Origin: Schmidtea polychroa
Taxonomy: Eukaryota
Direction: 5' to 3'
DNA length: 64,000 nt
NCBI GenBank assembly: GCA_044892525.1
Contig: CM097886.1
Span: 136,400,001 to 136,464,000, forward strand
Shown here: piece by piece, positions 2,524-63,312 of the stretch
Position numbering within the stretch: position 1 is the first letter of the stretch
How the letters are laid out: each line of letters opens with the position of its first letter
Notes under the pieces: generated by a model
Seen by the model: the letters and a program-made list of their open reading frames with translations, nothing else
Databases searched by the model: none
What the model was told of the DNA's origin: nothing
Translations under genes and position numbers: made by a program

Positions 2524-2717
2524 GTATTAGTAATAGTAATAAATACAATGTCAATTGAAAAGAAATCAGTGGTGAAAATTGAAAAAAAGTTCTTATAATA
2601 ATAGTAATAATAATATTATTATAAGAACTTGTTTTCCAATTTCACCACTGATATTTTTTCTATTGAATTTATTAAAAAAGAGCTTATCAGTAAATATATC
2701 GATGTTCTTTTTTCATG

Positions 2718-2752
2718 TTCACGAATTTTCGGCACTGTCTTTTTCAAGCGAC
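2718..2752 (-). ncRNA. Degenerate minimal type-I hammerhead ribozyme (PLE family 1)
   Basis: Minus strand GTCGC TTGAAAA A GAC AGT GCC GAA AATT C GTGAA; mismatches in helices I and II. Confidence 0.55.
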
Positions 2753-3213
2753 TTTGATCATTATTAAATTTACAACTTATTGTTGGGGAAAATTAAATTT
2801 ATTTCGTATTTTATATTTACTGGTTAATTTTTAAATTATATTTTAATTTTAATTATATTTTATATTTTTTATATTTTATTTTATAATTTAAAATTTTTTT
2901 AAAAAACGTTTTTTATATATTTTTAATTTAAATAAATAAATGTCTCTGGGATTTTTTTTAATTTAGTTGAATGTTGATGGATGGCTTATGTTTTTTTTTT
3001 ATATACAGAGTCTCTGCGGCTAATTTTTGCAATGTATTTTTGAACGCATCTTGTAATATTTTGCAAATATTACTCCAAGAGGCATATTACATAAAAAGAA
3101 TATGTCAATAAGCCAGTAATATACCTACGCTTCCCTTTTTTAAACAATAAGACATGTAATATAATCAGAGCTTACATTCGCAATATGGAGTTTCAAGTAC
3201 ATATTCGCCCAAT

Positions 3214-3495
3214 TTGACAACCACTGCACCTTTGAAATCACAGCTTCGTAAGTCTCAAAAATCTCTAACATCAGATCTATTTCATCGAGATTGTATATGC
3301 CAATCCTCCACCAAATGTTTTTGCTTCTCAAAAAACATTGTATACCAAATCTCTTGCACAAGATGCGACACATCGTACATTGGCGAAATACATAGAACGT
3401 TCCAAACAAGACTCAACGAACACATCAAAAACAAAACCAGTAATTATCACGAACACTGGAAAAAAGTACACAAATCAGCACCACTCATTCATTAA
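3214..3495 (+). pseudogene. Penelope-type GIY-YIG endonuclease fragment
   Basis: NIVYQISCTRCDTSYIGEIHRTFQTRLNEH matches the PLE endonuclease motif. The frame continues past a stop as ...LAAETLYIK. Confidence 0.88.
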
Positions 3496-3808
3496 ACAAA
3501 ATGCAAAATATTACAATATGCGTTCAAAAATACATTGCAAAAATTAGCCGCAGAGACTCTGTATATCAAAAAAACATAAACCATCCATCAAAATTCAACT
3601 AAATTAAAAAAAAATCCCAGAGACATTTATTTATTTAAATTAAAAATATATAAAAAACGTTTTTTAAAAAAATTTTAAATTATAAAATAAAATATAAAAA
3701 ATTGGATATATAATTAAAATATAATTTAAAAATTAACCAGTAAATATAAAATACGAAATAAATTAATTATTCTCCAACAATAAGTTTGTAAATTTTATAA
3801 TGATCAAA

Positions 3809-3842
3809 TTCACTTGAAAAAGGCAGTGCGAAAATTCGTGAA
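3809..3842 (+). ncRNA. Minimal type-I hammerhead ribozyme (PLE family 1), one base lost in helix II
   Basis: TTCAC TTGAAAA A GGC AGT GC GAA AATT C GTGAA at the 3' end of the pseudo-LTR. Confidence 0.6.
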
Positions 3843-4126
3843 CATAAAAAAAACATCGATATATTTACTGATTTATAGTCTTCCAGCTCTTTTTAATAAA
3901 AATATTAATATCTTTGTTGTATCTTTGTTGTTTTTTAATTCTCTGAAAATCCTCGATTTAAAATAATCCTTTTCAATTTAATACGAAACCTGAATGTTAT
4001 AATCTTTCCATTTGAAATATCACTCAAAATCAAGAGTAAAATGCTCACTAGTTAATTGAATGATTAATAAAACACTTTAATGACAAATTATCAATATTTT
4101 TATTGTATTTAATTATGATTTCATAG

Positions 4127-10260: not shown

Positions 10261-11475
10261 CTGTTAAAATAATAAAATTACTACAAGATTTTTCAGGCTA
10301 ATTTGACATTTTTTCTAAGTTAATTGACAATCAAATTCCTATTACTTTTCAAGAACAAGATTAATGCAATCAATCATATATTATTTNNNNNNNNNNNNNN
10401 NNNNNNNNNNNNNNNNNNNNNNNNNNNNNNNNNNNNNNNNNNNNNNNNNNNNNNNNNNNNNNNNNNNNNNNNNNNNNNNNNNNNNNNNNNNNNNNNNNNN
10501 NNNNNNNNNNNNNNNNNNNNNNNNNNNNNNNNNNNNNNNNNNNNNNNNNNNNNNNNNNNNNNNTCCGCAACCTCCTCCAATAATATTATATATCTGTGCT
10601 ATTGGCGTGCTATTTCAACTCGCTGAACATACTCTCGAGAAGATTTAGAAACGGAACATTAAGGGTTGTGAAGTTTAACTCATAACTCTGCTCGAATATA
10701 TAGTTTTTTATACGCAAGTTTTATTCTACTCCAAGTTTATTCCTTTTTTCGTAGCCGATGAATAAGAATCACAATAAAATCTTTTAAAAAATGGTATTAA
10801 AGGATAAAGCTGGTATTTGAAACGTCACAATACTTTCTTTCAACTTTCTTACTCCATCTATAAAAATGACTTTTCTTCGAGCAAAACCGCTTTATTTTAT
10901 TGCATATCAGAATCATTCAGTGTGGTGTCAACATCTACAATATTGTTCGCTGCTATAAATAAAAGGCATTAACTAACTTATAAATATTTGAAAGGTTTCT
11001 TAACGGTTGTAACCCTACAATTTTCCTCCAATAATTAGGCTTATATTCAATTAATTAAAGTTAATTCCCGATTCCCAATTAGATATAACCTATTCCCATT
11101 TGATCCACTTTCTTAAGTACATGATACGAAAACAATCCTAAAATTGAAAATAATATTATTTAGAAATTGGTTTTTTTGGAAAAAATTTAAAGTTGACTCC
11201 ATAAATTTGTCATTTTCAGAAAATATAAAACTCGAACATTCTTAAATAAAAGGAAAAAATTTGACTGTAAATAGCCAAAAATTTTCCAAAGCTAACAGAT
11301 AAACACTGAATCTGGGAAATTATTTTCGAAAATCCTGGAATTATGAACTGAATGAGAAATTGGTTTAGCGAAAAATACCGCTGAAACAAGGCCATTTTGT
11401 AATTTACAAATATTAAATTCAATTTTTAAAAATTTCTTTTAAATCCAAAATTATTGCCTTTTCATAAAAATATTA

Positions 11476-11702
11476 TAAGAACTTTTTTTCCAATTTCACC
11501 ACTGATTATTTTTTCCATTGAATTTATTAAAAAGAGAGCTTGAAGACTATAAATCAGTAATATATCGATGTTTTTTGATACTCACGAATTTTCGGCACTG
11601 CCGTTTTTAAGTGAATTCACTTAAAACAGGCAGTGCCGAAAATTAGTGAGTATCAAGAAACATCGATATATTACTGATTTATAGTCTTCAAGCTCTCTTT
11701 TT
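11476..11702. mobile_element. PLE family-1 pseudo-LTR ends forming a 174-bp palindrome (11529-11702) with two degenerate hammerheads
   Basis: Arms mirror around GTGAA|TTCAC (11615/11616). Both contain ggcagtgccgaaaatt. Confidence 0.8.
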
Positions 11703-13959: not shown

Positions 13960-14465
13960 GTCTAGAATATTAAACGTATGTAGTTATGTTAATTTCTCAT
14001 CAACAGAGGATATTAGGATTGCTGCGCTATTGCCATTTACAAATGTATATGCAATTATGAATTATTTTAAGTCAGTTGTGTGAGATTTTTGCTCATTTCG
14101 TTACCGTGACCGTGACTAAATATGATGTTCAAAAAAAATTTTGTGTTGGTTGACTTTCTTAAAATCCTTGCATGTCACTTTTTATTTCATTTTATTTCTG
14201 AGATCCCTCATTCAAATCGAGGTCGAAAACCTCAAAAAAGGTTGTATAGTTAATTTCTTTAAGGATTACCTCACAAAAAGACATTTTTGAAAATAAATTA
14301 GATTTTGATGCGGTAACGAAAGTGTTAATGATTTGTTTTTTTTATTTTATAATGACTAGATGATTTTTTTGTAATCTTTCTTGATGTTCTTATTCCCCAC
14401 TTTCATATAAATTTGTTACATTATGGATGTTAGGCATAAATTCAATGTATATTTTATATATTATT

Positions 14466-14590
14466 ATAAGAACTTTTTTCAATTTTCACCTCTGATTTCT
14501 TTTCAATTGACATTGTATTTATTAAAAACTTGACTCTGAATCAGTAAAAATATCAATGTTTTTTTTATATTCACGAATTTTCAGTACAAT
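14466..14590 (-). repeat. PLE family-1 3' end fragment
   Basis: ataagaacttttttcaattttcacc..tgat...ttcacgaattttc, same as 2621-2730, 11476 and 55604. Confidence 0.7.
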
Positions 14591-20940: not shown

Positions 20941-21846
20941 TTCTTTGACAGAATGTAAAATAGTTTATTTCCGCCAGACGTGATCATGACATTCACTAAT
21001 TTAATTTTTTTTAATTTATTAATTCTTATTAATTTTATTTAATCAAAATTTTAATCCAATGAAATGATAGAAAATGAATTTCAAATAAGAACTAAAAAAG
21101 CAATTGAAAATTGAAACACTTAAATTCTGAGAAATTGAAAAGGATTATCTAATATTCGAAAATTTTTTCATTCAATAATTTGCAACAAAAGACTTATCTT
21201 ATCATATTTACTTCTTCAACTTTTAATTTATGCTGCTACCAATAAACCATCATTTTATTATTATTATTAGAAAGAGGCCATCTAATATGTGTTTTACAAT
21301 ATATTTCGGTAGTTTATTATCATCATCAGGTATTATAGAAAATTCTTTAGATATATTATAGATTTATTAGACGAATTACAAAATAAATATTTAATTATTT
21401 ATTTTTATTTTAAAATAATTATAATCATCATTTGGTATGTATATATAAGCAAAAATTCAAATCAATAAGTTATATTTAAAAAAAATTTAATATTTAAAAT
21501 AGTACAACAGTTTTAAAATAATAAAAGTATTTGAGTATAAATTATTCATTGTAAAAGTTTATATTTTAAAATTACTTAATTTTAAAAATATTTATATATA
21601 ATATTTAAGATAACATTGAAATAAAGATGTCGTTGTGGTATAAAATTAAAGTAATGAATTATTAACGAAATAACGCTTCAGAAAGAGTCACTAATTTATG
21701 TTACTTAACGAAAATTGATATATAGTCATAATGAAAATAAGTGAAATTTGTCTAAGTCATATTTTTTTACCATCGACCTATTTTCATTTTCTATTTCTTT
21801 TAACTTCATTTTTACTCAGATCAATATAAGAATTATTAAATCTATA

Positions 21847-21920: not shown

Positions 21921-23097
21921 TGTACTAATTTTTTTATGTCACCAAAAAATGAAAAAATATAAATAAAAATAATAAATGACATGACGAAAAAAAACGACAT
22001 CCCAGCTAGCCTATCTTTAACATTACTGGTTGGACTGATCCATTAGCGTGCCTTCGTAGGTGTGCATTTTATAAAATGTTAGTCTAAAAAATGGGTTCCT
22101 GTCATTTTTTCAATTAGCAAGAGTAGATCAATAAATTTGTGCATTTCTTGATATATAGTCAATATATAAATGAAGAGAAAATTAATTTTAATTGATTTTA
22201 AATTTAATTATTTGATTACTTGGAATTCCGGGTAACTAGAACAATGATTCTTACATATTCAATGTCAGTCATACTTTAAGTATAAGTATTTTGATAAAAA
22301 TAAGTCATGAATTGTCATAAAAATGAAAATGATTTCTCCAGGAAGCAGATATTTTTATTATTAAAGAGATTCACTTAGTTTGTTTGATAAAATTCTAGTG
22401 CAAAAAACTGAGACCTGTTTACAAAACGAGACAATAAATCACAGTTTAATCTGAATTCATTTGAATTGTCGTTCATGGAATTTGTAGAATTAATGGATCG
22501 GTTTAGGACAGATTCACTTTATCCTCAACTTTAATCGTGCACGCGCGACGTATTGAAACCTGTGCATTATTAACATTGATTCACAAGTCACTCCATAAAT
22601 TTCTATAGGAAACAGTCGACAAATTAGTGGGATATGTTGCCTTCTTCTCTTTACGTGACATAAATGATTCTATTTCAAACAGAATTAGTCACTCATTTTC
22701 AGTACAAATATAGGAATTTCTCTAACTCTTATTTCTCCACTTTTCTATTACAATTTCTTTTATTTACCACAGTGAAACATATGTAAATCGGAATAGAGTG
22801 AGAGAAATTCATAAAAAATATAGTTTTTTAATGGAAAATATGAAAACATTTCTAATGAGTAATTTATGCAATTTAATGCACTAAATATTATAAATTTATG
22901 ATTAAATATGGCGTGAAATAGTTTTTATAGTCTAAATTAACTTTATGGAATGAATGGAAAATATAAGTAATACTAATAAGTAATACTAATAAGTAATAAT
23001 AATAATAATAATAATCAAAATAATAATTCCATAGAGAAAAGTCGATTTTCAGATATCATTGAAATAAAAGTAAGCTAATTAAAATTAAAAGTTATGA

Positions 23098-23176: not shown

Positions 23177-26100
23177 GACCCGAATTAACATCTTCGTAGG
23201 CCCTAGGCACTTTTAGCTTGGGAGACCCTCTTGCATAATTTTTTGTCAGTACAGTATCCCTAATGAAGTCAGCTATATCGCTAATTTTTAAAATGCGTTA
23301 ATAATTCCATAGTGCTTTATTTTAACAACATTTTATTTTATGAACGTTATTTTAAGAACTTTATTTTTTTCTTTATGTTGTGTTATAACACAACCGAGCG
23401 TTTTTCTACTACGCCCGAAATTGCGTATTTCGTATGTATGTATAACGTTGATGAGTATACTAATTATTATACTTTAAATGTTTTTTTCTAAGTTTAAATC
23501 CCACGTATTAAAAAAATAATCCTCCTGCAAAAATATTCAACCCGCCTGCTATGATTGCTATGGTTAATTATCAATAGCGATTTTTTACATATAGGAGTGA
23601 ATTTAAATTTGAGTATTTAGTAGCTGTGGATTTATGGTTGCAATTGTTTTTTTGTAGTACTTTTTTTACAATTAGTTTTCAGAAAAATTTAAGAATTATA
23701 ATAGTGTTTATTCTTTGTTAAAGTTATCTATAGTTATGTTATTTATAAACGATAATATTTCTGTAAATTGTAAATATTAATTATTTAAAAGTAAGTCTTC
23801 TTTTTTAAATATATAATAATTTAATAAAAATATTAATATATATGTAATTCCAAATATAAATTATTTAATAGTAAATCAAAAAACAAGTGATTTGTATCAA
23901 AAGGAATTCTAATTGAAGTACATATATTAAAAAGTTCCAGTTGTATTAACAATAATAAAAACAAGCATCTCTATATAAAATCTATAAAAGTGTAGATTAA
24001 GTATATTGTTCATAGAACTGAAATTCTTGAAGTAAGTATACATAATATTAAATATTTTCCTCTAACTATAAAAATTATATTTAGTTTAGCCAGTTTAAAA
24101 TTTAAAGAAATGTCTGACGGATATAAGAGAAAACATGAGTCAGGCTCAGAAAAGCGTAAAAAGAAAATTGTCAAAGAAGAAGCATTGAAAAACATGAAAG
24201 GTTCACTACTCAAATATATAACAGCAACAAGAGGAAATAATGAAAGCTGTTCTACAAATGTACACGAATTTATTGGACCAGAAAACCAAAATCAAAATAA
24301 AACTTCAGAACAATTATCATGTGGTAGTAGTGGTACAGAAGATATTAGTACTGATAAACAGGGCACGTATACAGGTGAGACAGAGGTAGTAGAAGGTCAA
24401 ACTTCTGCCGAAATAATTATATCTTTAGAGGATAATATAATAGAAATATCTAATGAAATATCAAAAGTTAATTTAAACTTAAAATATAATAATGATCCAG
24501 CTAATTGGGATATTACTGCTGATCTCATAAATTATTTTTCTGAAAATAAGCCTTCGCAAAATATAGATTTCAATTTTCTCTTGAAGGGTAGAAAATATGG
24601 AGACAAAACCAGATATCCACGTAAAGAATATTTTATCAGGAAATTAACAAATGGGGAAACAATCGAAAGAGACTGGCTTATATATTCTCCATCAACTGGA
24701 ACAGTACATTGTTATATCTGCAAGCTTTTCCCTAGAGTGAACGTGAACGTAATTCTCAATCAATTTAAAATTGGATTTGATGATTGGAAAAATGCAATGT
24801 CCAGGATTACATCACATGAAAAATCAAAAGATCATCTTGACGCAGTATCAGCTATGTTTCAATTACAGAAGAACAGTAAAATTGATGTAGAACTACAGAA
24901 AGAGAAAGATAAATTATGTAAATACTGGATTGAAGTTATAAAGAGAATAGTTGCCGTAATAAAATTTCTATCTGAAAGAGATTTGCCATTCCGTGGGAAT
25001 AATGAAATTCATAATTGTTCTAATAATGGAAATTATCTTGGTTGTATCGATCTTATAGCCGAATTTGATCCTTTTTTAAAGGAGCATATTCGAAGACATG
25101 GAAATCCTGGAAGAGGACATGTTTCCTATTTATCTAATATTATATGTGAAGAATTTATTGGTATACTAGAATCCAAGGTAACAACGCAGATAATATCTGA
25201 AATTAAAGAAGCGAAATATTATGGAATCAGCATTGATTCAACTCCTGATATTAGTCATATGGACCAGATTACCGTGATAATTCGGTATGTACTTAAATGT
25301 GGAAATGTGGTTGAACGATTTTTAAAATTTATTGCAATTGAACAACACGATGGAAAATATTTATTCGACATTATACGACATACTTTGGAACATCATAACA
25401 TAAGTATTGGAAATTGCAGGTCCCAATCATATGATAACGCCAGTAATATGAGCGGCATATATACAGGTGTACAAGCTAGATTTAGAGAAATAAATAAACT
25501 GGCGGAATGGGTTCCATGTGCTGCACATAGTCTTAATTTGGTGGGTTCAACTGCTGTGGAGTGTTGCCTGGAAGCAGTAAAGTTTTTTGGAATTTTAGAA
25601 GCAATATATACTTTTTTTTCCGCTTCACCACAGAGATGGTCCAAATTTAAAGACAATATGAAAGAAAATACTTGTGTTGTAAAAATTTTATCAGAAACCA
25701 GATGGTCTGTACGACATGATGCTACTAAAGCTCTATTCATGAATTATTCAGAAATTCAAAAAGCATTGTTTGAAATAACTGAAAGCGAACGTCAGCCTGC
25801 AGTGGCTGTGCAGGAAGCTAAATCTTTAATAAAAAACCTGAACAATTTTGAAACAGCATTGATGTGTGTTATTTGGAATGATTTATTGCAAAATATTAAT
25901 ATTGTCAATAAAGCTCTGCAGGAGACTGGCATAGTATTATGTACCATTGTCAAATTATTTAAAACTCTCATAGCTTACTTTCATGGTATTCGTATAGAGT
26001 TTGATAAATTTGAAACCATGGCAAAAAAACTTACAACTTCCGAATATAAACAACATACACAACGTAAACGAATAAGAAATAGATTTTTTGACGAAGTTTT

Positions 26101-26890
26101 AGACAACACCGATCCTAGTTTGAGCCTGAGTGCAAGTAACAAATTTCGTATTGAATCTTTTTATATAATAGTAGATAAACTTATTATTGAGATGCGTAAA
26201 CGTCTTGAAGCATACGGAATGTTATATGAAAGGTTTAATTTTTTAGTGGACAGAACTTTGACAAATGATGAAATAGTTTCGAAAGCAAACAAGTTAGTGC
26301 AAATATATTCTTCAGATGTTGAAGATGCATTTTGTGACGAGTTTTTATTATTTTCACGAATGTATGGAGATAAAAAATCAGTGAACGAAATGTTAGTTGC
26401 ACAAATAAATGATAAATTAGTTACCAGTTTTCCCAATGTAAATATTGTGTTACGAATTTATTTATCAATATTTGGTACGAATGCGGAAGGGGAACGTAGT
26501 TTTTCAAAGCTTAAAAGAATTAAAAATTGTCTCCGATCAACTATGGGGCAGGAACGATTGTCAGCACTAACACTTTTATCTATTGAAAGTGATTTAATGC
26601 GAGAGATTAGTTTCGATGAGGTTATTGTCGAATTCGCAAATAAAAAATGCAGAAAAGTTATTTTAGATAATAATTGAATAAATTGTTTACTAAATTAATG
26701 TTATTTTTTTATATTTTTTTGAAAATAAATTTTTAATTATTATGAATTAAACCAATTTTTTTTTCATGCTCTGGTTAAATATTTATAATATACATTTTTC
26801 GTAAGTATAAATACATATTTTCGTAGGCCATTTAATATTCGTAGGCCCTAGGCACTGTGCCTACTGTGCCTATGGGATAATGCGCGCCTG
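23175..26890 (+). mobile_element. Full-length autonomous hAT DNA transposon (3.7 kb)
   Basis: Imperfect TIRs CAGACCCGAATTA / CAGGCGCGCATTA (10/13); 8-bp TSD tatatatg/aatatatg; single intact transposase ORF. Confidence 0.88.
24110..26677 (+). CDS. hAT transposase (TTF-type zinc finger, DUF4371-like region, hAT dimerization domain), 855 aa
   Basis: WLIYS..HCYICKLF zinc finger; catalytic motifs SIDSTPD, SYDNAS, CAAHSLNL, TRWS and AEGERSFSKLKRIK. Confidence 0.93.
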   Translation: MSDGYKRKHESGSEKRKKKIVKEEALKNMKGSLLKYITATRGNNESCSTNVHEFIGPENQNQNKTSEQLSCGSSGTEDISTDKQGTYTGETEVVEGQTSAEIIISLEDNIIEISNEISKVNLNLKYNNDPANWDITADLINYFSENKPSQNIDFNFLLKGRKYGDKTRYPRKEYFIRKLTNGETIERDWLIYSPSTGTVHCYICKLFPRVNVNVILNQFKIGFDDWKNAMSRITSHEKSKDHLDAVSAMFQLQKNSKIDVELQKEKDKLCKYWIEVIKRIVAVIKFLSERDLPFRGNNEIHNCSNNGNYLGCIDLIAEFDPFLKEHIRRHGNPGRGHVSYLSNIICEEFIGILESKVTTQIISEIKEAKYYGISIDSTPDISHMDQITVIIRYVLKCGNVVERFLKFIAIEQHDGKYLFDIIRHTLEHHNISIGNCRSQSYDNASNMSGIYTGVQARFREINKLAEWVPCAAHSLNLVGSTAVECCLEAVKFFGILEAIYTFFSASPQRWSKFKDNMKENTCVVKILSETRWSVRHDATKALFMNYSEIQKALFEITESERQPAVAVQEAKSLIKNLNNFETALMCVIWNDLLQNINIVNKALQETGIVLCTIVKLFKTLIAYFHGIRIEFDKFETMAKKLTTSEYKQHTQRKRIRNRFFDEVLDNTDPSLSLSASNKFRIESFYIIVDKLIIEMRKRLEAYGMLYERFNFLVDRTLTNDEIVSKANKLVQIYSSDVEDAFCDEFLLFSRMYGDKKSVNEMLVAQINDKLVTSFPNVNIVLRIYLSIFGTNAEGERSFSKLKRIKNCLRSTMGQERLSALTLLSIESDLMREISFDEVIVEFANKKCRKVILDNN

Positions 26891-31030: not shown

Positions 31031-31647
31031 ATTTTAGTTAATAAAATGTTGCTGTGTAAATATTGTGGAGTCTTATTTTGGATATGTTTAATTGATATTA
31101 AATTTCCAAGTACGATACCAACATTTTATATCAGAACTAATGTTTCTGTTCCATTGCGTACATGTTATTATGTAATTATTCTACATGTAATATTTTAAAT
31201 TTTACAATAGCTTTAAATTTTATTGAACAACAGAATTTTTATTTCAATATTATCTGAAAATCGACTTTTCTCTATCTAATAATGCATAGATTATTCTATT
31301 TCATAAAATATATCTTGCAATAGTCCCGCCATACAATGTTAAATATTAAAATTTATTTTAAATAAATATAACTTATTTGTTTGAGTATTTGTCATGGTAA
31401 TCATGGTAGTCATGGTAACGATGATTAAATTTAGAAACCAAATGGTTTCAAATGAACAAAATGTAAAATCCAAAAATTATAATTATTATGTCTTATGACA
31501 AGTACTTATATATTAGGTATTTCATAAAATCTTTGGTTGTACCTTACAGGTCGGTCACCAAAGGTTGGAAATTTCTAAGTGAAATTCAACGCTTTTTGAA
31601 AAATTTGATGTATTGGTATTTGTTATTAAATGGAATTTTCCTTTCAG

Positions 31648-36600: not shown

Positions 36601-37253
36601 AATAAACTAAAGCTTTGAGCCCCAGATTTCAGGAGCCTCTAGATTTTAAGAAAATGATGTTTTTAAACAGGGAAATATTTTATGTTGCTTTGGGAAGACG
36701 ACAATTAAAATTCATTTCTGGTGATTAAATGTTGCCAAGATGGATGCTGGTTCTCATAGCCAATTTACTATTTTAATCATTTGAAAGCAGTTAAAATTTT
36801 TTGATTTTAACAGAATCTAAACAATTGTAGCATGACAGTAACATTTTCTCTTAAACCGAAACCATGTTAGTAGAGAATTTGACATCAAAAAGACTTATAT
36901 AAATAGCCATAACACTGTTTAAGAAATAATAAAACTCACATTATTAAAATTCAAGATCTCACTAATAGATGAAAACTCTACTACTACAAAAAAACTACAA
37001 ACAAATATACAAGAAATACTTTTTAAAACTCATTGATATTACGAAAACAGAAGTTAGTGGAATAAATTTATTTGTGAAGTTGTTATTTACATATGGAGAT
37101 TAATATTAATTAAATGTTTTAATTTTTCTAATTGATTCAAATGATTTGAATGTTATAATTTAATTTTCTATATTTTTAAATATTCAAATTTGATCATTTG
37201 TTTAAATATTCAGTGTTCATGTTCTAGTTTGAAATTATAGATTTTCAAAACTT

Positions 37254-37970
37254 ATGATAGAAGAAGCGAAGTTAATAAAGCAAGGTGCCGAAGCAAAGAT
37301 TTATGAATTAACATGGCATGGAAAACCAGCAATTATAAAAGAAGTTCTTTCTAAAACATATCGACATCCTTCATTGGATAAGTTAATTATCTCTCAGAGA
37401 ATGAGGAATGAAATTAAATGTTTAGTTTGGTCTTCACAACTTGGATTAAATGTTCCAAATATTTATCATATGGATTTTGATCGTAGAATTATATGCATGG
37501 AATATATTTTTCCTTCCATATTAGTTAAAGAATATTTAAATATTCTTTTATCATCAAATGATGAATTATATGAAATTCCTAAACAAATGCTTGCTTTTAA
37601 GATTGGAAAGGATCTATCATTGCTTCATTCTAATAACATGATCCATGGAGATTTAACAACCTCAAATATGATTATTAGACTAAAGGAAGTCAATCAATAT
37701 CAAGAACTTTTTAAAATGAAAGCTGAAGAAATACCAGTAGTATTTATTGATTTCGGACTAGGCTTGAAACAGGTTTTACCAGAAGATCTCGCAGTTGATT
37801 TGTTTGTCATGGAATCAACTTTGTTAAGTACTCATCATTTAGGCGAACCATTTTTGGAAATGATTTTATCTTCCTACTTTGATGGACTATCAACAAGTCT
37901 AAAGCAAATTGTCCACCGGAAACTTGAACACGTACGCACAAGACGACGAAAGAAACTAGCGATTGGATAA
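37254..37970 (+). CDS. TP53RK: EKC/KEOPS complex kinase TP53RK (PRPK/Bud32), 238 aa, single coding exon
   Basis: QGAEAKIY, K..LSKTYRHPSLD, IHGDLTTSNM, FIDFGLG, EDLAVDLFVME and a C-terminal VRTRRRKKLAIG. Confidence 0.95.
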   Translation: MIEEAKLIKQGAEAKIYELTWHGKPAIIKEVLSKTYRHPSLDKLIISQRMRNEIKCLVWSSQLGLNVPNIYHMDFDRRIICMEYIFPSILVKEYLNILLSSNDELYEIPKQMLAFKIGKDLSLLHSNNMIHGDLTTSNMIIRLKEVNQYQELFKMKAEEIPVVFIDFGLGLKQVLPEDLAVDLFVMESTLLSTHHLGEPFLEMILSSYFDGLSTSLKQIVHRKLEHVRTRRRKKLAIG

Positions 37971-42740: not shown

Positions 42741-43463
42741 ATGTCAGTGCCTACCGTTCCCAGCAAAGAACTTCGATCCTGTTTTTCTTGCGCAGACAAG
42801 AACGAGGATATACGAAAGCTGCACATATATATTGGGGCTCTGAAGAAACGTATAGACACATACGAGGGCACGTGGTTCTCCCCGCCACAAATGAAAGAGG
42901 AGCGGACTAAAATCCTACGTTTGGAGCACTGCCGTGACAGTCTCCTGGAAGAGAGCAGATGCCAGCGGCTAACCATCAAGGCCCAATCAGAGGCACTGCA
43001 TAAGGTGTACACGGACGCTGAAGTCGCCAAACGCTTTCGGGAGTACCCAATTCAGGACGGGACCAACGTATTCCCGGTCCATCATCAGGCTTACGGGGCA
43101 TCAATACCCTCAACTAGCTGTCTGGGGCACGGGCCTCAACTGCCGCCCCTTTCTGAACCTATCCTGTCGAGCTCTAGGCCAGCGTCGAGTGGTCCATCGG
43201 TCCACATGCCACATGTAGTACTTCCTTCCCAAAATTTTCAACCCACTACCGATTCTACGTCGTCGATACGGAAACGTAAACGGCCTACGCGATCCGAGAA
43301 GAACCAAAAGCGCCGAAATGCTATCGCTGTCCTTATCGGTCGCACAATCAACCATCAAAGAGATTACCGCCACGCACTCCGTACCTACCAAGGAGATATT
43401 CCGAGTCGTCCCAGCAGGAGGAACAAAGTTCCTAGAAGATCGCCGATTACCAGTGGATATTGA
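42741..43463 (+). CDS. Orphan 240-aa protein (CxxC, coiled-coil, Pro/Ser linker, Arg-rich C-terminus)
   Basis: Long ORF; ATG directly follows the acceptor ttttaattctag|; upstream small exon 42631-42663; AATAAA near 43626. Confidence 0.55.
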   Translation: MSVPTVPSKELRSCFSCADKNEDIRKLHIYIGALKKRIDTYEGTWFSPPQMKEERTKILRLEHCRDSLLEESRCQRLTIKAQSEALHKVYTDAEVAKRFREYPIQDGTNVFPVHHQAYGASIPSTSCLGHGPQLPPLSEPILSSSRPASSGPSVHMPHVVLPSQNFQPTTDSTSSIRKRKRPTRSEKNQKRRNAIAVLIGRTINHQRDYRHALRTYQGDIPSRPSRRNKVPRRSPITSGY

Positions 43464-44943
43464 CGAAATGCTGGCCGAGGGAGAAGTTTTTCCTTGACTC
43501 GCGAATTAAAAGACAGTTACTTGACTCCAGTCGACTCGTTGTGATTTCCGTCATGCTTTATTCGTTTTCTATTTGACTCTTTGTACAGAACTCAGTTGCA
43601 TGTGCCATTATTCTAGCTTACAATAATAAAATTTCTATCTGTGTTTTAGTGTATTCGATTGGGATTGCTATGTAGTATGTATCTGACGAGTGATTGCCTG
43701 ACAGTGAAATTTTCTAGCAAGGTCGTCCCCTTGGACCAGGGTCGCACCAAATTATATGGTTGAATCAGGGTAAGTCCTTCTACGGCACCTTTGAACCCGA
43801 ACTGCGAGTTTGCTAAGAGTAGTCCTAAGGTAGGGGCTCACCTGTTAGTAAATTCCGATCTATGTGCGCAGTACCAACGTGTGACATCGCCACGGGCACA
43901 CATAAGGGAAATTAGCTAAGGTCATCTTGGATATCCAGGGAACCACACGCTGAGCAGACAGGGACAGTTTTATCTTGTTTTAATTTTCTTCCTTACCGGG
44001 TATTCAGCATAAGTCTACAATATACAAAGTTAGAAAGGTTTAATGAGAAAAAAATAAATTCATACATGCAAGTACTGTGCACAAAATTTCTATAATAAAA
44101 ATACACATAGTTGGACAATAATTAAGGGACTCATTTTAAATATAAAAAAGTAATTACGGATATTTTCGAAGAAAATTTTGATGTTTCCACCAACAATTAT
44201 TCCATGCAAACAAATATATAAGTTTTCTTTATTTAATTTATGTTTTGTGATAGAATTTGTGTTATTATTAAAAATTATTGAATTTTACTATGAAAAATTA
44301 TTACAAAAAATGCAAAGAATTAAAAACACGTTTATAAAATTATTATTATAATGAGTTAAATATAATTCAATAATTTCCATATTAATATTTGTAAGACTAT
44401 AGGTCAAAAAATACATAAGGTTCACGATATTTCAGCATAACCTTTGAAATAAGCACTTGATAAGAACTATACCGAAATATCATTAAAGGAGCAAATAAGT
44501 GCAGTGCACGGGGCCATTTCATAAAGTGAGAAAACGGTATTATATATACTGCTACTTGGATTTCTGTGTCCCATTGATATAACTAAACAAAATAAAGCAC
44601 CTTCAATATTTTCCTGCTTCTTTTCACAAAATCGTTGATTACATTGTCGAAGAAATTTTGTTTGTAAGATGGAACTCTAAAATATTATTGCAAGATTTCG
44701 TAACCGCAAGGTATTCATTGTACATTTTAAATAGTTCTTAATTAGTTTAAATTTAGTAAAATGACTACCCCGGAAGGAACACCCTTTTGACCTTTTAGCT
44801 ACACACCTAAGCTAACAATTAGATGAATATAACACGTAACAATTAATTCGTCCATTATGACTCTTAAAAGAATTATAAAATTAAATTTTTGAAATCAGAT
44901 TATTGATAATTAATTAAGTAATTAATTAAATCAATAACATTTC

Positions 44944-46812
44944 ATGAGCAATAAGAAACAAGAACGTATATATAATAAAGACCGAATTCAAAGAATCAAA
45001 GAAGCATCTGAAAAGGCGAAGCAGAATGATCCCAATTGGAAGAATGATGCGCCGGCGAGTATACTCCCTGATGAAGAAGATGATATGCCAATAACACAAA
45101 TGAGAACCCCTCCATTTTTAAAAGAAATGGAAAATAACACTTTAGATCAGGGTGTTGGTTTATCTAAGAAATTAACTCTAAATGAATTAACACAATGCAA
45201 CAAAGATTCCAGTCAACTGCAAGACATAATGAATTCGAGTAATATCCCCAGAAATCAACACAAAAATGAATCAAGATCCGTAAATTTTTTAGAAAAATCT
45301 CGCATGAAAAAAGTAAAGGAAAGAGACGATTTAAATCGACAAACTGCTGAAAGTCTTGATAAGGCTTCAGAAAGATGGCATTATCAATTGAAGGAATATA
45401 ATAAAACTAAAAACACTCAAGATTCAACAGGAGTTAAGTTTTCTCTATTCAGTGATGAAGTTGACGGACATGATAAATCAGAAAAAGAAAGAAATGAAAA
45501 GAGGTTAGGAAACAGACGGGTATCCGGTGATTTCGTAGATAGACTAGATTTGTTACTGCAAAGAGGGACACGTCATTCGAAAATGTTTAGCAATATGAGT
45601 AATCTTCGTAGAATTAATGAAAGGTCTTTTAATCGGTGGTCAGGAAAATTTGATAAATCTTCGTCTATGTGGGACTTGAGATATTCTCTTTTATGTAATA
45701 ATCGTGAAGGAGGAATCCGTAGCAATCATTTTACTCCTGGTTTAAGTTCATTGAAATCTGAATCAAACTTGTTATCCCACAGAAATCCACTCTGCGATTT
45801 ACCTGCAATGCATAACACTGGCTTTCAATATCCCCCGGGTCTTATAAATAATAATGCAAGCATAAATCCCAATTTGAATATCAACCCAAATTTCCAGTAC
45901 CACTCAAACATGGGATTTCCGCAGAACTATAATACCCAAAATTTTAATCAATTCGTACCGAAGCTGAATCAAATTCAAACTCCAATTGCAAATTCTGTAA
46001 ATTTATCACTACCAAATTCTAATTTGCAGCCTTTGATAAATACAAATCAATTTAGTAACCCCTTTGAAGTTCAAATTCAACCCAATCAGCCTCCTTTTCC
46101 TCAAAACGCAATGTGGTCGTTAAATTTCCCCCAACAGTCTTTTCAACAAACATTTCCCAATATGCCAAATAATTATTCCCAAAACTTTTTACCTTCTAAC
46201 CCAGCTGAAATTTGTCTTAAGACCAATGAGCCTATTATTACCAATACCAATTCATCCAGTACTGAAGGAAATAAATCCTTTGAATCGGTCACGCGAAAAA
46301 TTGATATTCTCGTCGAAAAACTAGAGGTTCTCAACTCAACCGTAGACCAATTAAAATCGGCTCAGACACGCCAAACTGAGAACTCTGTAAATAAACCTCA
46401 AAGATATGTCAATGTTTCTTCAGAAGTCGAACGACTTCCAGAGAGTAAAGTAAAGGGTATTTATCGTCCTACAAACAATCCTTGCAATTGTCCAGATTGC
46501 AAAAAAACTCCAGATAATCAACAAATTTGGGTTGATCGAAAAGTGAAGTTTGATTTAATTAGAGAAAATGACAAAGAGAAAAGAATTGAAAGTAAAGAAA
46601 TTGTAGAAGTAGACACCTCAACCAACCTAACCACTACAACTAACAACCCAATCGAGGCCGAACAAAGTTTCACTTATCCGAAAAACTGTCATCCTCGAGC
46701 GGTTCAAAAACAATTTAATCAAAACCTAAGAATATCCGATCAATTCCAGTCTTTTCATTTACCTCCTGAATTGTCCAAAATATTGGAACCGAATATTAGA
46801 AGAAGCAGTTAA
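44944..46812 (+). CDS. Orphan intronless 622-aa protein, mostly disordered (N/Q/P-rich), short coiled coil, CNCPDC motif
   Basis: An uninterrupted 1869-bp ORF in AT-rich DNA is very unlikely by chance. No recognisable domain. Confidence 0.7.
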   Translation: MSNKKQERIYNKDRIQRIKEASEKAKQNDPNWKNDAPASILPDEEDDMPITQMRTPPFLKEMENNTLDQGVGLSKKLTLNELTQCNKDSSQLQDIMNSSNIPRNQHKNESRSVNFLEKSRMKKVKERDDLNRQTAESLDKASERWHYQLKEYNKTKNTQDSTGVKFSLFSDEVDGHDKSEKERNEKRLGNRRVSGDFVDRLDLLLQRGTRHSKMFSNMSNLRRINERSFNRWSGKFDKSSSMWDLRYSLLCNNREGGIRSNHFTPGLSSLKSESNLLSHRNPLCDLPAMHNTGFQYPPGLINNNASINPNLNINPNFQYHSNMGFPQNYNTQNFNQFVPKLNQIQTPIANSVNLSLPNSNLQPLINTNQFSNPFEVQIQPNQPPFPQNAMWSLNFPQQSFQQTFPNMPNNYSQNFLPSNPAEICLKTNEPIITNTNSSSTEGNKSFESVTRKIDILVEKLEVLNSTVDQLKSAQTRQTENSVNKPQRYVNVSSEVERLPESKVKGIYRPTNNPCNCPDCKKTPDNQQIWVDRKVKFDLIRENDKEKRIESKEIVEVDTSTNLTTTTNNPIEAEQSFTYPKNCHPRAVQKQFNQNLRISDQFQSFHLPPELSKILEPNIRRSS

Positions 46813-51724: not shown

Positions 51725-52684
51725 CTCTAAATCATTTAAGTAACCAATCAAATTTTCAACTACGACATTTTCCCAATGATCTATGAGTTTTCCTTGAATA
51801 ATAAATGATAAAAATGAATTAATAAATTAATTTGTTTTTTTCTCTCCAACCTCTCCAAGGTACGTCAAATCATTTTAAATTAATTTTATTTTCATAGTCA
51901 AGTATTTTAATAAATATAAATTTGTTTTTTTCTAAAATAATATATTCAGGTGATGTATGGCATTTTCTTTCGACTGCTGATGTTGTTGATTGCAAATATG
52001 TCAGACTTGTAGAAAATAATTAAACACTTGTAATAAATGAAATCACCTCTAAGTTAATCTTTCCTTATGGTATGAAAAAAATAATATTTAAATAATTGAT
52101 AAATTGTGTAAAAGTACAATAAATTCAAGTTTTATTGATTTGCTCGAGAGAGCCTGGAGACGGTACTAGATAAGAAAACCAAATCAGCTCAATACCACGA
52201 TTGTTTGCTGAAAACAATTAGGTGAATGCAAGATTCGAAAAAACAAGAATTTTCATTAAATATATTGACATAAGAAGATTACGATAAATAATTTCCTAAT
52301 TCAATTTGATATAAGCACAAACATGTGAATACTGTCCGATGCACGCACACACATTCTTAATTGTGACATTCAGTCCAAACCACAACAAATGACAAATACA
52401 TTTGGTTTTTTTCCATCCATCTAAATGTCAAACGAATAAGCAGTTTTAAGTTAATTGGTTATTGGTGTATTTTCAAAACTACCCACAAGATATATTGCGT
52501 GAGTGTGACTTTGTAAATTGTTTGTTTATAGCAGATTCTATTTGAAAATGGTGTATAATTGCAAATTAATTTAAAGGAATCATTTCATAAATAGTTTATA
52601 GTTAATTTTAATCTCGAACCCAGTGTGTTATATTTTATATATTGTTATATTTTATATTTTGACAAATTGGAATTTCCTTTTTAG

Positions 52685-53637
52685 TGGTGATCCCGATTAC
52701 GATTCAATATATTGGATCAATTCTTGATTTTAGACTCAGACTTCAATATCAGATCGAGGATACGGAAGAATTAGACTATCCAATCGAAAAATATGAGTAC
52801 TATTTGTATCATTATCGGATCATGTTTAACCTCAGCGTATTTCTGACAATAATTGGTTCATCTTTGCCAACCTCGATCTACATGACACAAAGAAACACCG
52901 ATGAAATGTATACTATTAGTGCCTATGAGGAATTTATCAACATTTGGGGAGTTTGTCATTTGATGGCATATTTAGATATTAGCGGTAGAATTTTCTTCGG
53001 ACTTATAATAACGGTCCCCTCGCTGATAATTTTCATTTATGTCTTCCTCAACAAATACGAGACGAAAGTGATTTTTCGAATCATTTACATTTCATCTTGG
53101 GTCTCATTGGTTTTTGCTTTGATTTCCCCTCTGATGTTTGTGACAAATGAATACGAAAAGTTCACAATTGAAAATCGCTCGTTAATTTATTGCAAACAAG
53201 GTACCGAATTGACCGTTTACAATCGTTGTCGACTTTTTGATCTTTTCTGCGCTCACCTGATTCCCTTAGCAATACAGATTCCTTGCATAGTCATGATCAA
53301 AAAAAGTTTAATGTTTGTCAATAACTCCCTTTTATATGAGCCGATCATTTTCATTGTCACAAACATCCCAATTGCAATCATTGACATCATCGAACAAATG
53401 GATGCAAAACGGGTTCATTCATCGGAATTCGCCAATTTTTACATTTTGTTTCTGGCAATCTACCATTTGGGTTACACCTGTATGATTCTTGTTTCGCCCA
53501 TTCAAATGGTTTGGATGAATCAAGACAAAAATGCGCCGGTTAAACAGGAAATTAATGACGTATACAAAATTCTGATAAATCGTAAGACAATTCGTAAAAC
53601 GATCAGGAGACAATATACTGCAATAAAAACAAAATGA
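52685..53637 (+). CDS. Divergent rhodopsin-class 7TM receptor (orphan); short 5' exon(s) not resolved
   Basis: Seven hydrophobic segments, Cys at the top of TM3, W..P in TM4, YC in ECL2, Pro in TM5 and TM6; acceptor ttccttttag|. Confidence 0.65.
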
Positions 53638-55493: not shown

Positions 55494-55603
55494 GTTAAGA
55501 TATGCGTGAAAATCTCATTATCTATAAGTTTGACATCTAGTCTAGTAGTATAAAATTTGCATCTATGCGAGTGATAATATGTAAAATATAGACAATTTAC
55601 TTA

Positions 55604-55780
55604 TTATAAGAACTTTTTTTCAAATTTTACCACTGTTTTTCCATTGTATTTATAAAAAAACTTGAAGTTTATGAATCCAGTAAATATATTGATGTTTTTG
55701 ATATTCACTTGACAAAGGCAGTGCCGAAAATTCGTGAATATCAAAAACATCGATATATTTACTGATTCATAGTCTTCGAA
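55604..55780. mobile_element. PLE family-1 end with an inverted 3' segment fused at the hammerhead
   Basis: 55664-55708 is a near-perfect reverse complement of 55734-55777. Confidence 0.75.
55704..55738 (+). ncRNA. Minimal type-I hammerhead ribozyme with an intact core
   Basis: TTCAC-TTGACAA-A-GGC AGT GCC-GAA-AATT-C/GTGAA. Helix I is TTCAC/GTGAA; U3-A8 replaces C3-G8; helix III is the palindrome AAUU; predicted cleavage after C55733. Confidence 0.72.
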
Positions 55781-58307
55781 ATTTACTTATATTTTAAATT
55801 ATTTTGCAAAATATTTTTTATCGGTAAATTAAAATTTTCACTAATATTTGAATTCAGCAAGTTTAAGTAGTCACTTTTACATTTGAAAGTTACGATAACT
55901 AAAGGAACTATTGCAATAAAACAGTGACTTTGAATTTGAATTTGGGTCATAAACCTAAAACGAGAAATGACAACGTGTCCTCTGTTTGGTGTCCCCGATG
56001 AACTACCTCATGATGTGTTACTTACATACGAAAGTGTCATAAAACTTTATGTGTTGCTGAAGAATGAGCTGAAGCTTTGTTAGACTGAAACATATATAAC
56101 ATAACCACTGGTCTCGAAAATCGAGCATATGTGGATTAAGTCTTCTATATCCACTGTTGTACACGTTCAGGTTTTACAGTTCATTCACAATTATTATGAC
56201 AAATACATGAATTTGATAAGGCAATACAAGGGAGGTTAGAGGTACGAAAAGTACCAAACATAATTCGCCATTTCAAAGAATACAACAAACAAAAATTATT
56301 TGACATCAGCTTTGAAATTCTACATTTTTGTCATATTGATGTGAAAATTTCGTAAAGTTCCTATTGCAGAGAGTGCGTTTCTCTTGGACCAACAAAACTT
56401 TCGTTAAATGAACTTAAGAAAAGTTGACAAAGTTGTATTGCTTAAACTGGCCTATTGTTAGAAACACGGGGTTTAGCAAAATAATCGGGTTCTAAAATAT
56501 CAGAAATTGACTTATGAAGAGAACATTTTGGCTCAGTGACATTGTTTTCAATAATTCTGTAAAAACAGATGAAACGATTTTGATACCGCATTTTCGTGCC
56601 ATAGAGTCCATTAACGATTTCAGTTTTTGTACGTTTTCCTGCATATCGACCCTTTCTGAACATATTATGATGAATCCGTTCTCGCCATGATCTTTCCTAT
56701 CACCTCATTTACATCTGACCCGTTTTTCAAATTTTAATTCGATGATTTCTTAATTTTGAATTTTGAATATTCTCTTTTTAATCATTTGGAAATTTTAAAT
56801 TTTAGAACTCCAACATAATAATAAAAATAATAATTATTGTTAGCCACAGAACTTCTGATATTAATTGAATCCATTTAAAATCAAGATTTCGAATACGTTT
56901 TATCATTTATTCACAATAGTATTTAAACAAATCACATCATAATTGGTTTGATGAGTTTCTATAAAAATAATTAATGCATAAGTAAAGATTTCAAAATACA
57001 GACAACCTGCAATAATAATTTAATTTATATTTTAGAATACCTCACAATTATAATAGTAAAATTAATAATAATAATCATAAAATATAATTCAAATAAGTGA
57101 TCTGTTGTATTTATTCATACAATAAAATCTTTCGACATCAAATAGATCTTGATCACTCCATCAAGGTCTATGAAAGATGGGCCAGGGACATATGCTGCTC
57201 TGTGACCCGGAAGTTACAGCTATATATAATTGAATCACACATTTACAGATCATTTAAATAAAAGACTATTTNNNNNNNNNNNNNNNNNNNNNNNNNNNNN
57301 NNNNNNNNNNNNNNNNNNNNNNNNNNNNNNNNNNNNNNNNNNNNNNNNNNNNNNNNNNNNNNNNNNNNNNNNNNNNNNNNNNNNNNNNNNNNNNNNNNNN
57401 NNNNNNNNNNNNNNNNNNNNNNNNNNNNAATGTTGAATAATCTTATCTCTATTCTCACTTTTTTCCTTTTCCAAACTCTATAGACTCCTATTTCCTTTTC
57501 CCAATATATCTACTCAACTTTAAATTCACCTTTTAACGTTTACCATAAAAACGAGTATCTGTTTTATGTACAGATGACCGATCAAGGGTAAAAAATTATA
57601 GTATTGCAAAGAAATTCAAAATTTACAAAAGTTTTCAAAATAGATTTAAATTAATAAAAAATTAATTAAGTGGAAAGCGAATAAAACCATCAAATAATTG
57701 AAAAAACTAAAAATATTATTGCTTTACTCTGGATTTCAGCATTACTTAGAGTTGACAAAAACATTTCCTTTTAAAATCTTTTAATAATCTTTGTTTTAAT
57801 TGACTGCCAGTAGCTACAGTTTATTAATGCAAATAATCCAAACTATCATGAGATATAAATATTTTCTGTGCGATTCAAACAAAATATAAAAAATTTCAGA
57901 TTTTTTTTATTTATTTAAAATAAAATAAACCAAACAATAGAAAATTGTCAATTAATTTCTTCAGACATTTCATCAATATATGATTGTTTTACTAGATATT
58001 TTGTTTAATACAAACAAAAAAAAGTAAAAGAAACTTGGCCAATAAATTGAAAAAAATCAAAGCTTCAAAAATATGGTCAATCTCATATATATACTAAAAT
58101 AAACATTATGAAAATTACATCAATTTTAGTAAATTTGTTTAAATATTTGGTAGAGCATTTCTTATTTTATTGAATACCCCTTCACAAACTACTTATTAAT
58201 TCAAAAATACACCTAGAGATATACAAAACAAGTTTGTAAACAATTCATTACAACGAATAAATAAAATAGTTACATCATCTTCTTTCGAACTTTCATCAAT
58301 ATTCAAA

Positions 58308-59361: not shown

Positions 59362-59922
59362 TACATAACAATAATAATAATATAAAGTGATGATTTCTTG
59401 TTAGCAGCATTTATTATTTAAAACAGTAAAATGATAATTTAAGCCTTTTGCTGCAAATAATGTATTTAATGAAAAATCTTTCGACTATAAAATAGTCCCT
59501 GATAATCGAAAATATCTCTATTTTGACAAATAGGGGAGCATTCAAAACATCATTAAGCTTATTCACATATACATCGTGGTCGAGAATTACCAATCCATTT
59601 CCTTTGTCAAACTTGCATATATTGATGTCTTTTTTAGCTAAATATTTTAATACAGTAAAATCTTTAATATCCTGCACTTTATTTGTATCAATATTAATTT
59701 TCTTTTCAATAATGAATGGTATCAACAAATAGATGGAGTTGCTATGGGTTCTCCTTTAGAATCAACGATGGCTTCAATTTTTTTAGCAAGCTTAGAAATG
59801 AAAATTGCATCTTTCCAATGTATGAAACCCACTGTTTATAAACGGTATGTGGATGATATTTTTCTTATATTTGAAAATCAGAGGCATGTTGACCCGTTTT
59901 TGCATTATATGAATAGTCTATA

Positions 59923-61522: not shown

Positions 61523-61561
61523 CACGTGATGATGACAGGAAAACTATCGAAATATATCGTG
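61523..61561 (+). ncRNA. Degenerate hammerhead ribozyme at the 3' end of PLE family 2
   Basis: CACG-TGATGA-T-GACAG GAAAA CTATC-GAA-ATAT-A-TCGTG. Palindromic helix III AUAU; core appears to have lost C3. Confidence 0.5.
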
Positions 61562-61822
61562 AAAAGAATNNNNNNNNNNNNNNNNNNNNNNNNNNNNNNN
61601 NNNNNNNNNNNNNNNNNNNNNNNNNNNNNNNNNNNNNNNNNNNNNNNNNNNNNNNNNNNNNNNNNNNNNNNNNNNNNNNNNNNNNNNNNNNNNNNNNNNN
61701 NNNNNNNNNNNNNNNNNNNNNNNNNNNNNNNNNNNNNNNNNNNNNNNNNNNNNNNNNNNNNNNNNNNNNNNNNNNNNNNNNNNNNNNNNNNNNNNNNNNN
61801 NNNNNNNNNNNNNNNNATGTAC

Positions 61823-62109
61823 CATAATTATGCTATATCCCCGCCATAATTCGCTCCATGTTGCTGGACATAGTGTTCTTTCTATAGTTGATTGATTGTG
61901 AAACGCATAAACATTTGCAGGAGCGCTGCAGACCACACATCGAGAAATTAGGTTTTTCACTTCACTAACATGAACCGGGTTACCAATCGGATTCAAGTTA
62001 CTAAGCCAGTAGGAGCGTGCATTTCGAATGTTAAAATGACAACCGGGTTGTCTGTCACAGTGTATCACAGGAGTAGCACTGAATTTCTCTAAACAAGAAG
62101 CCGGTGAGC
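61823..62109 (-). CDS. COL4A: Collagen type IV alpha chain exon (NC1)
   Basis: GSPASCLEKFS...SYWLS...ISRCVVC...WRGYSIIM|GTACAT; 44-nt intron upstream (62110-62153). Confidence 0.92.
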
Positions 62110-62153
62110 CTGGAAAAATATTAAACCTTTGAACACTGTACATTGATCTTTAC

Positions 62154-62888
62154 CGAGATCCATGGCTGTGAGATGTTCATTTCCTCCAGACATAACAAAG
62201 CTGTATCCCGTTCGAATCAAATTCGTACCTTCTGGACATTCGTAGGTGTCATTTTTAGATAATTCTTGAAAGTGTCTTGCAAAGAGAATTTCAGATCTGT
62301 TGATTGCTGCTCTCTCACCTTTCATTCCAATATCACCCTGAATACCGGGAATTCCTTTAATACCAACTTTTCCTTTAATTTTTAAACCAGTTGGTCCTGA
62401 TCCTCCTCTTTCTCCTTGTTTACCTTTTATTAAGCCAGGAAGACCCTTTTCTCCTTTATTTCCCCTTTCTCCTTCTTCGCCAATTGTACCATTTTTTCCT
62501 TCATCGCCAGTTTCTCCCTTTTCCCCTTTAGTTATTTTACCAGGCAGTCCCTTTTCTCCTTTTACCGATTTTCCAATAACTCCTTTTCCTCCTCTTTTTC
62601 CACCAATTCCTTGAGGTCCAATAGGACCAATGGGGCCTGATTTGCCTTTTTCCCCTATGTCTCCTTTTAAACCTTGTTCTCCTATTTCACCCTTTTTACC
62701 GATCTCTCCAATTTCACCTTTATCTCCAATATCACCTTTAGTGCCATTTTCTCCTTTCTCTCCCATTTCGCCTTTAAGTCCTCTTTCACCAGGACTGCCT
62801 CTCTCTCCAGTTGTTCCATTTTCACCCATTTCACCTCTTATGGCATCAGTTCCATTTTTTCCAACTTCTCCTTGATCTCCAATAGGTC
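62154..62888 (-). CDS. COL4A: Collagen type IV alpha chain exon (Gly-X-Y plus NC1 start)
   Basis: Gly-X-Y repeats followed by ILFARHFQ...CPEG...GYS...DLG. Confidence 0.93.
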
Positions 62889-63312
62889 CTAAAAATAATT
62901 TAACATAAATAAAATTCAATCCTTAAACAATTTTTTCATCAAAAATATGATACAAAAAGGTGGCAACGTTAAAGACGAATTCATTAATTTTGCCTAATTT
63001 CAACAATACAAATTAATTTATAAATTAATTAATTTAAATTGGCATTAATCAATTCTTTTTGAAAAGAAAATAACCAATTTTGGTAGTCCCACTGATAGCA
63101 GAACCCTTTATAAAACCAGTTATGCCCAGCAACAGGAGCCCGTTTCAAAGTAAAGTTTATCCTTGGTAAACTTAACCAAAGCTTTTTCATTTGAAATTAC
63201 TTTGAACTTAAAAAACCAAAACCCTTGAAGCGTCACATAAACCTATTGCATTTAAATTTAAAAAACTGAGAAATCTTTTTCGTTATGTCAAAATATTATA
63301 TATAATGTTCAC

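Follow-up and report, generated by a model that had tools for sequence, protein, structure and literature searches.

Introduction

The pseudo-LTRs of animal Penelope-like elements (PLEs) carry minimal hammerhead ribozymes, and the parts of the survey by Cervera and de la Pena available to us count about 1300 motifs of the U3-A8 variant in S. mansoni (Cervera and de la Pena 2014, PMC4209133). The same source describes an extra base between positions 9 and 10.1, a G10.1-C11.1 pair, a palindrome at 15.2-16.2 and pairs of motifs on opposite strands. In animal elements the palindromic 4-base helix III pairs between two copies (PMC4209133, PMC6765202), and the minimal motifs are described as having low activity in vitro and as cutting only as dimers (Cervera and de la Pena 2014, PMC4209133); these authors do not exclude other functions of the motifs, and the accessible portion of their paper contains no assays of U3-A8 motifs (PMC4209133). 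The hammerhead of an Anolis element cut only in the presence of protein and was dispensable for insertion in vitro, and, in what is accessible of that study, no RNA ends at the cut site were seen in public RNA-seq (Frangieh 2024, PMC11167929). Penelope insertions in Adineta vaga are reported, in the available sections of the study, to have inverted pseudo-LTRs, 8-10-bp duplications and junction palindromes, and junction palindromes, overlaps and microhomology deletions are known for these elements (Arkhipova et al. 2013, PMC3846280). As for the proteins encoded, the Hydra clade is said to be marked by DKT and a CxCx5C linker (Craig et al. 2021, PMC8557442, as far as the accessible material goes).

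Here we analyse a stretch of 64,000 nucleotides from Schmidtea polychroa (contig CM097886.1), referred to throughout as the window. The window holds a minimal type I hammerhead fold of the U3-A8 variant, left in a head-to-head stub of 175 bp that a target duplication flanks. We consider it likely that this fold belongs to a Penelope-like pseudo-LTR and that the active parent element cut its own RNA after C17, either as a dimer or with the help of the element's protein.

Results

The motif occupies positions 55704..55738 of the plus strand and is the sole intact one of the five complete hammerhead copies in the window. In the hammerhead numbering applied here, helix I is formed by 55704-55708 and 55734-55738, the core TTGACAA spans 55709-55715 (U3 at 55709, A8 at 55714), and an extra A at 55716 lies between the core and helix II. 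Helix II, GGC-AGT-GCC at 55717-55725, gives a stem-loop II of 9 nt with three pairs and a 3-nt loop; it is followed by GAA (55726-55728), by AATT, the palindromic helix III (55729-55732), and by C17 at C55733, directly 3' of which the cut is predicted. A first-pass annotation of the window had called an intact minimal hammerhead at this place, with U3-A8 and a palindromic AAUU helix III, and the call proved right in each of these respects. Core positions U4, G5, A6, N7, A9, G12, A13 and A14, the A15.1-U16.1 pair and a non-G at 17 (H17) are kept in this copy and in two related metagenome loci described below (L001 and L002), and both copies at 11.6 kb depart from them. Lunse et al. 2017 reportedly described small Penelope hammerhead variants and may already list equally short stems, and for this reason no size record is claimed for the 9-nt stem-loop II.

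Matches to a 25-letter core pattern, with up to three mismatches allowed, number four in the window against 0.00 expected from 100 shuffles. A generic minimal-hammerhead scan found two matches against a shuffled mean of 0.13, the second of which belongs to a different repeat family at 21.1 kb. The exact core pattern had no matches in the metagenome collection. No hammerhead family of Rfam matched the motif at the gathering threshold, and the motif is thus not filed under any Rfam family; at E values up to 10 the region around it gave 13 weak matches, nine to generic microRNA hairpins and none to a hammerhead.

Folded alone, the 35-mer reaches -6.5 kcal/mol (z -0.91), a stability that is not unusual. 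Together with its flanks it folds into a hairpin of -52.2 kcal/mol (z -14), in which helix I extends to 31 uninterrupted pairs because this copy is a foldback. The ordinary stability of the 35-mer, the absent Rfam hammerhead match, the weak scores of the long hairpin to several microRNA families, far below thresholds, and an A/T-rich core in a window of ~27% GC would all fit a motif that is an accident of an AT-rich foldback, a MITE-like or microRNA-like hairpin unrelated to any ribozyme. Against such an accident, helix I and the core are also present in single arms that have no pairing partner (3809 and 2718), the family follows a GIY-YIG open reading frame, and the motif recurs with paired changes at the equivalent place in L001 and L002, the latter at a GC content of 46%. 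We regard an accidental origin as very improbable; it is largely refuted already by the GIY-YIG link, the related loci and the paired changes.

The family is inserted at four sites in the window, namely at 55.7 kb and at 2537-3903, 11471-11700 and 14461-14590, and four of its five complete hammerhead copies are damaged. At the second site a hammerhead on the plus strand (3809..3842) lies ~205 nt past the stop codon of an open reading frame and has lost one base of helix II. Next to that open reading frame lies an inverted, 5'-truncated partner (2610..3065, minus strand), consisting of the end of the open reading frame and the pseudo-LTR to its full 3' end; it shares 92% identity with the direct copy across 382 columns, and its own hammerhead (2752-2718, minus strand) has a mismatch in helix II and one G-U in helix I. 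A short 3'-end fragment of the family (2537..2603, plus strand) adjoins a (TAA)n run. The insertion at 11471..11700 is a head-to-head palindrome centred at 11613-11618, with one hammerhead on each strand (11615-11581, minus, and 11616-11650, plus); G5 is changed to A in both, a change judged to inactivate the hammerhead core, and A9 to C in one. The fourth site, 14461..14590 on the minus strand, is a single pseudo-LTR stub, 5'-truncated inside the hammerhead at about the middle of helix II. The variants annotated at first pass at 2718 (minus), 3809 (plus) and 11581-11650 (both strands) were thus all located, and all of them are damaged; position 7 does vary among the copies, as had been claimed, but so do the supposedly fixed G5 and A9 in the 11.6-kb copies.

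Pairwise identity of the longer arms is 71-92%. Five arms share the 3' terminus, and three right arms end earlier, at differing points. Three of the family's insertions in the window are inverted. A target duplication of at least 7 bases was a true flank pair in one of the three insertions tested, and neither the insertion at 11.6 kb nor that at 14.5 kb showed a convincing duplication. A possible start of the open reading frame lies in the terminal 45 nt of the pseudo-LTR, with frames that are discordant between copies.

The open reading frame upstream of the 3809 hammerhead, on the same strand, is the decayed, frameshifted C-terminal end of a Penelope-like coding sequence (3066..3607, plus strand, stop at 3605-3607). 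It encodes a Cys linker, CxCx5C, and a GIY-YIG endonuclease with CxxC and a downstream His; the Pfam GIY-YIG match has an E value of 1.7e-4 and 22.3 bits, just under the cut-off of 22.6. Two database proteins are 71-75% identical to the remnant over the whole query. Both are apparently chimeric gene models, and a search with one of them returned 212 proteins, some of which match its unrelated N-terminal half; 12 longer relatives were chosen by hand from the rows matching the endonuclease and scanned for domains. RVT_1 was found at E below 1e-5 in ten of the 12 and weakly in an eleventh, and GIY-YIG at E up to 0.01 in nine, always C-terminal to the reverse transcriptase (RT). No RT of this family was seen in the window, and the order of RT followed by GIY-YIG is taken from the relatives.

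As the GIY-YIG remnant precedes the 3809 copy and the full-length relatives consist of an RT with a C-terminal GIY-YIG domain, the hammerhead family is, on sequence grounds, part of the pseudo-LTR of a Penelope-like element. The multi-copy Penelope end family of the first-pass annotation therefore holds, with the remnant upstream of 3809 and an equivalent motif in L001 and L002. The parent element appears to be of the canonical type, in which the endonuclease follows the RT, and by eye is Nematis-like. Elements of the Naiad and Chlamys kind, with the endonuclease N-terminal to the RT and without a canonical hammerhead, were considered and rejected, as here the endonuclease ends the open reading frame and follows the RT in the relatives.

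A scan of metagenome contigs covered the best 78 loci of 463 relatives. Under strict settings a hammerhead was found in 13 of these 78, always on the strand of the open reading frame, as against 0-1 per shuffle in ten shuffles. A looser scan of the plus strand of the same best 78 loci gave 23 rows, three with U3-A8 (L001, L002 and the distant L043), one with C3-A8 and the rest with C3-G8. The loci nearest to the remnant among these 78 are L002, L005 and L001. The U3-A8 motif lies 164 nt past the stop codon in L001 and 157 nt past it in L002, and the contig of L005 ends within an apparent C3-G8 core. In a 34-row endonuclease tree L001 groups with the remnant at 97/90, the remnant filling 28% of the columns. 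The tree gives no single origin of U3-A8: it takes three changes, 232 of 500 shuffles are as low, and 12 of the 31 inner branches are open. The proposal that the family is lineage-specific fails, as U3-A8 is also present in L001, L002 and the distant L043 and, according to the accessible parts of PMC4209133, in S. mansoni. L001, the closest of the related loci, likewise terminates in an inverted copy of its own 3' end (positions 1521-1735, 79% across 224 columns), and in this copy a frame opening with ATG may represent the initial codons of the open reading frame.

Seven motifs, the five window copies with L001 and L002, were aligned on a structure drawn from one row. Pairing holds in 93.4% of 76 cells, and in 29-49% in slid controls. 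Four compensatory pairs were counted, a number equalled in one of 500 shuffles; two in helix I and one in helix III come from L002 and one in helix II from L001, so that each rests on one sequence and one cell. The helix III palindrome is AATT in the window and in L001 and AGCT in L002, and stem-loop II of L001 is also 9 nt long with only two contiguous pairs. Among the five window copies taken by themselves there is no compensatory change, and the check for such changes that the first-pass annotation had set thus comes out negative within the window and positive once L001 and L002 are added. Its claim of U3-A8 covariation finds no footing in the window, where all five copies have U3-A8 and covariation of the 3-8 pair is invisible; the pair is U-A in all seven aligned rows and C-G in most of the distant loci with a motif. 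A covariance model of the seven motifs was set aside as added support, being circular and recovering only its own training rows: four in the window between 3750 and 64000, and L001 and L002 among the best 78 of 463 loci. Three further window rows (E 0.49-0.6) were judged to be chance.

The intact copy sits in a 175-bp head-to-head insertion, 55605-55779, between the two copies of an 11-bp target-site duplication (55594..55604 and 55780..55790, both read on the plus strand); a repeat of 11 bases was reached by 8 of 3000 random pairs of places. The left arm (55605..55708, minus strand) is an inverted pseudo-LTR piece that runs from the first base past the predicted cut site to the full 3' end, and the right arm (55703..55779, plus strand), which carries the core, begins immediately upstream of helix I, stops ~45 nt beyond the cut site and lacks the element's last ~60 nt. 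The arms overlap by six bases, 55703-55708, which are helix I itself.

As the sole intact copy of five, with a hairpin of -52.2 kcal/mol (z -14) clamping its helix I, the 55.7-kb copy could be seen as one that the host has co-opted, either as an active ribozyme or as a hairpin RNA, and that is alone intact for this reason. However, its arms are 86% identical over 59 columns, about the difference seen among the other copies, and at such divergence one intact 35-mer in five is expected. The clamp, moreover, would hold the copy monomeric, and a monomer cannot form helix III. Co-option seems to us hardly credible.

The left arm, when extended, reaches exactly the base following C17. In the family as a whole five of eight arms, at three of the four insertion sites, start between about -33 and +6 of the cut site, a tally from a tiny sample in which the arms of one insertion are not independent. 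The left arm could conceivably be a DNA copy of the 3' cleavage product of the ribozyme, joined via helix I to an uncut copy; it would then record in genomic DNA that a hammerhead among the smallest in nature had cut in vivo, and would suggest that the starts of short Penelope insertions are set by the fold, a reading that we find decidedly unlikely. The route, just as doubtful, would be that cDNA running off the cut RNA annealed to a second, uncut cDNA. A perfect palindrome such as that at 11.6 kb, losing 35 bases between two short direct repeats, explains the junction equally well, and as the six-base overlap is helix I, the two histories give identical letters. A simple snap-back from the strand that carries the complete 3' end was rejected, since it predicts the core on the long arm, whereas the core is observed on the short one.

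The intact motif lies between two genes, a hydrophobic, membrane-protein-like frame without a Pfam match (52663-53637, plus strand) and the end of a type IV-like collagen (61544-62922, minus strand), with no long frame nearby. Three plus-strand frames at 4084-4524, 15110-15832 and 18448-18987 may be exons of one RING-finger gene, the RING match being in the 18448-18987 frame and absent from the tested part of 15110-15832; if they are, the 11.6-kb and 14.5-kb stubs are intronic. A kinase at 37233-37970 (plus strand) is a host gene, presumably of the TP53RK/Bud32 type. The most GC-rich part of the window holds two long plus-strand frames without Pfam matches, 42741-43463 (240 codons) and 44938-46812 (624 codons).

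Other mobile sequences are present as well. An uninterrupted hAT transposase frame of 893 codons (23996-26677, plus strand), with DUF4371 and hAT dimerisation domains, is possibly a recent insertion, and a hAT remnant lies at 6478-6933 (minus strand). The repeat family found by the generic scan has copies at 21131-21270 (plus) and 59372-59498 (minus), 77% identical over 132 columns. The first carries a U3-A8 hammerhead candidate in which helix III is AATT and stem-loop II measures 15 nt; the second lacks the 5' core but has that stem in a perfect form of 6 bp, with GAAA after it. This family may represent the end of another Penelope family, with no open reading frame linked to it. Two unclassified dispersed repeat families lie at 5283-5390, 12652-12709, 23012-23069 and 31212-31320, and at 9522-9696 and 16056-16233.

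Discussion

Since AAUU cannot close a hairpin, helix III would need two copies of the motif, and by analogy with the animal elements it may form between the two pseudo-LTRs of one tandem transcript. Such a dimer would cut after C17 and thereby trim the element RNA. The stub at 55.7 kb may be a product of target-primed reverse transcription in which the 5' end was truncated and the join inverted, and would be intact by the chance of neutral decay, probably with no host function. If transcribed, this copy is predicted to be held in a monomeric hairpin and is probably inert.

The energy model, which is without tertiary terms, puts an unproductive symmetric duplex with an intermolecular helix II at -24.6 kcal/mol, against -13.0 for two monomers and -8.4 for the active dimer as drawn. 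A working dimer in which the cores share both helix II and helix III was rejected, as the stacked helices would then have to close into a very small ring. The predicted unproductive duplex and the stem-loop II of just 9 nt, with 2-3 pairs, would suit a motif of the same origin that is shrunken and cleavage-dead even in active elements, the pseudo-LTR retaining the fold as a signal that is structural or bound by protein. The weak activity of minimal motifs in vitro, with other functions left open (PMC4209133), and the Anolis insertion that proceeds in vitro without cleavage (PMC11167929) point the same way, as far as the accessible parts of both papers go. Yet the catalytic core is kept in the intact copy, L001 and L002 while the helices change in pairs, the pattern expected if catalysis is kept, and we therefore judge the loss of cleavage unlikely.

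The locus represents a new family of an already described kind of minimal Penelope hammerhead, and adds one family to a class that numbers thousands of copies in each animal genome. A small group of related Penelope-like elements has in common the combination of U3-A8 and a very short stem II. The cut-site junction, if recurrent, would bear on in vivo cutting and on the copying of cut RNA into DNA.

By eye, and against the supplementary alignment alone, the relatives resemble the Nematis rows of Craig et al. (2021, PMC8557442). The family linker CxCx5C, and DKT in most of the full-length relatives, are unlike Nematis and are Hydra-clade marks in the accessible part of that work. The Hydra clade itself was rejected, as it is defined there by the absence of CCHH, whereas CxxC with the downstream His is present in the remnant and the relatives (PMC8557442).

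The 55.7-kb stub resembles the inverted pseudo-LTR insertions of A. vaga, as the available sections of PMC3846280 describe them, in its head-to-head arrangement, in the overlap or palindrome at the junction, in the extension at one end and in a duplication of ~10 bp. It differs from them in that the whole insertion consists of two pseudo-LTR pieces, the extension is ~40-60 nt instead of 30-40, and the junction coincides with helix I of the hammerhead (PMC3846280). With the animal non-LTR retrozymes, to judge from the accessible text of the preprint (bioRxiv 10.64898/2026.07.22.740005), the family shares a non-coding sequence derived from a pseudo-LTR and a type I hammerhead. Retrozymes, however, consist of direct repeats in tandem, each unit having its own hammerhead (bioRxiv 10.64898/2026.07.22.740005), whereas the window copies are dispersed, inverted and mostly damaged; as tandem direct units are absent among them, identity with non-LTR retrozymes was rejected.

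The closest likeness is to the minimal hammerheads of animal PLE pseudo-LTRs and to the U3-A8 families of the S. mansoni Cercyon elements, in so far as PMC4209133 was available to us: the type I layout, U3-A8, the extra base between 9 and 10.1 and G10.1-C11.1 are shared, as are a helix I of 4-5 bp, the palindrome at 15.2-16.2, the place after the open reading frame and the occurrence of solo and opposite-strand copies. The opposite-strand pair at 11.6 kb shares a palindrome centre, whereas the pairs in PMC4209133 are 100-700 bp apart. Unlike the S. mansoni motifs, which mostly have 7-8 pairs in stem II (PMC4209133), the motif described here has three, and its stem-loop II of 9 nt compares with a minimum of 11 nt among the 56 rows in Fig. 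S3 (PMC4209133) and of 10 nt among the rows in File S2 of Craig et al. (2021, PMC8557442). Its AAUU helix III is that of a Crassostrea row in the same Fig. S3 (PMC4209133).
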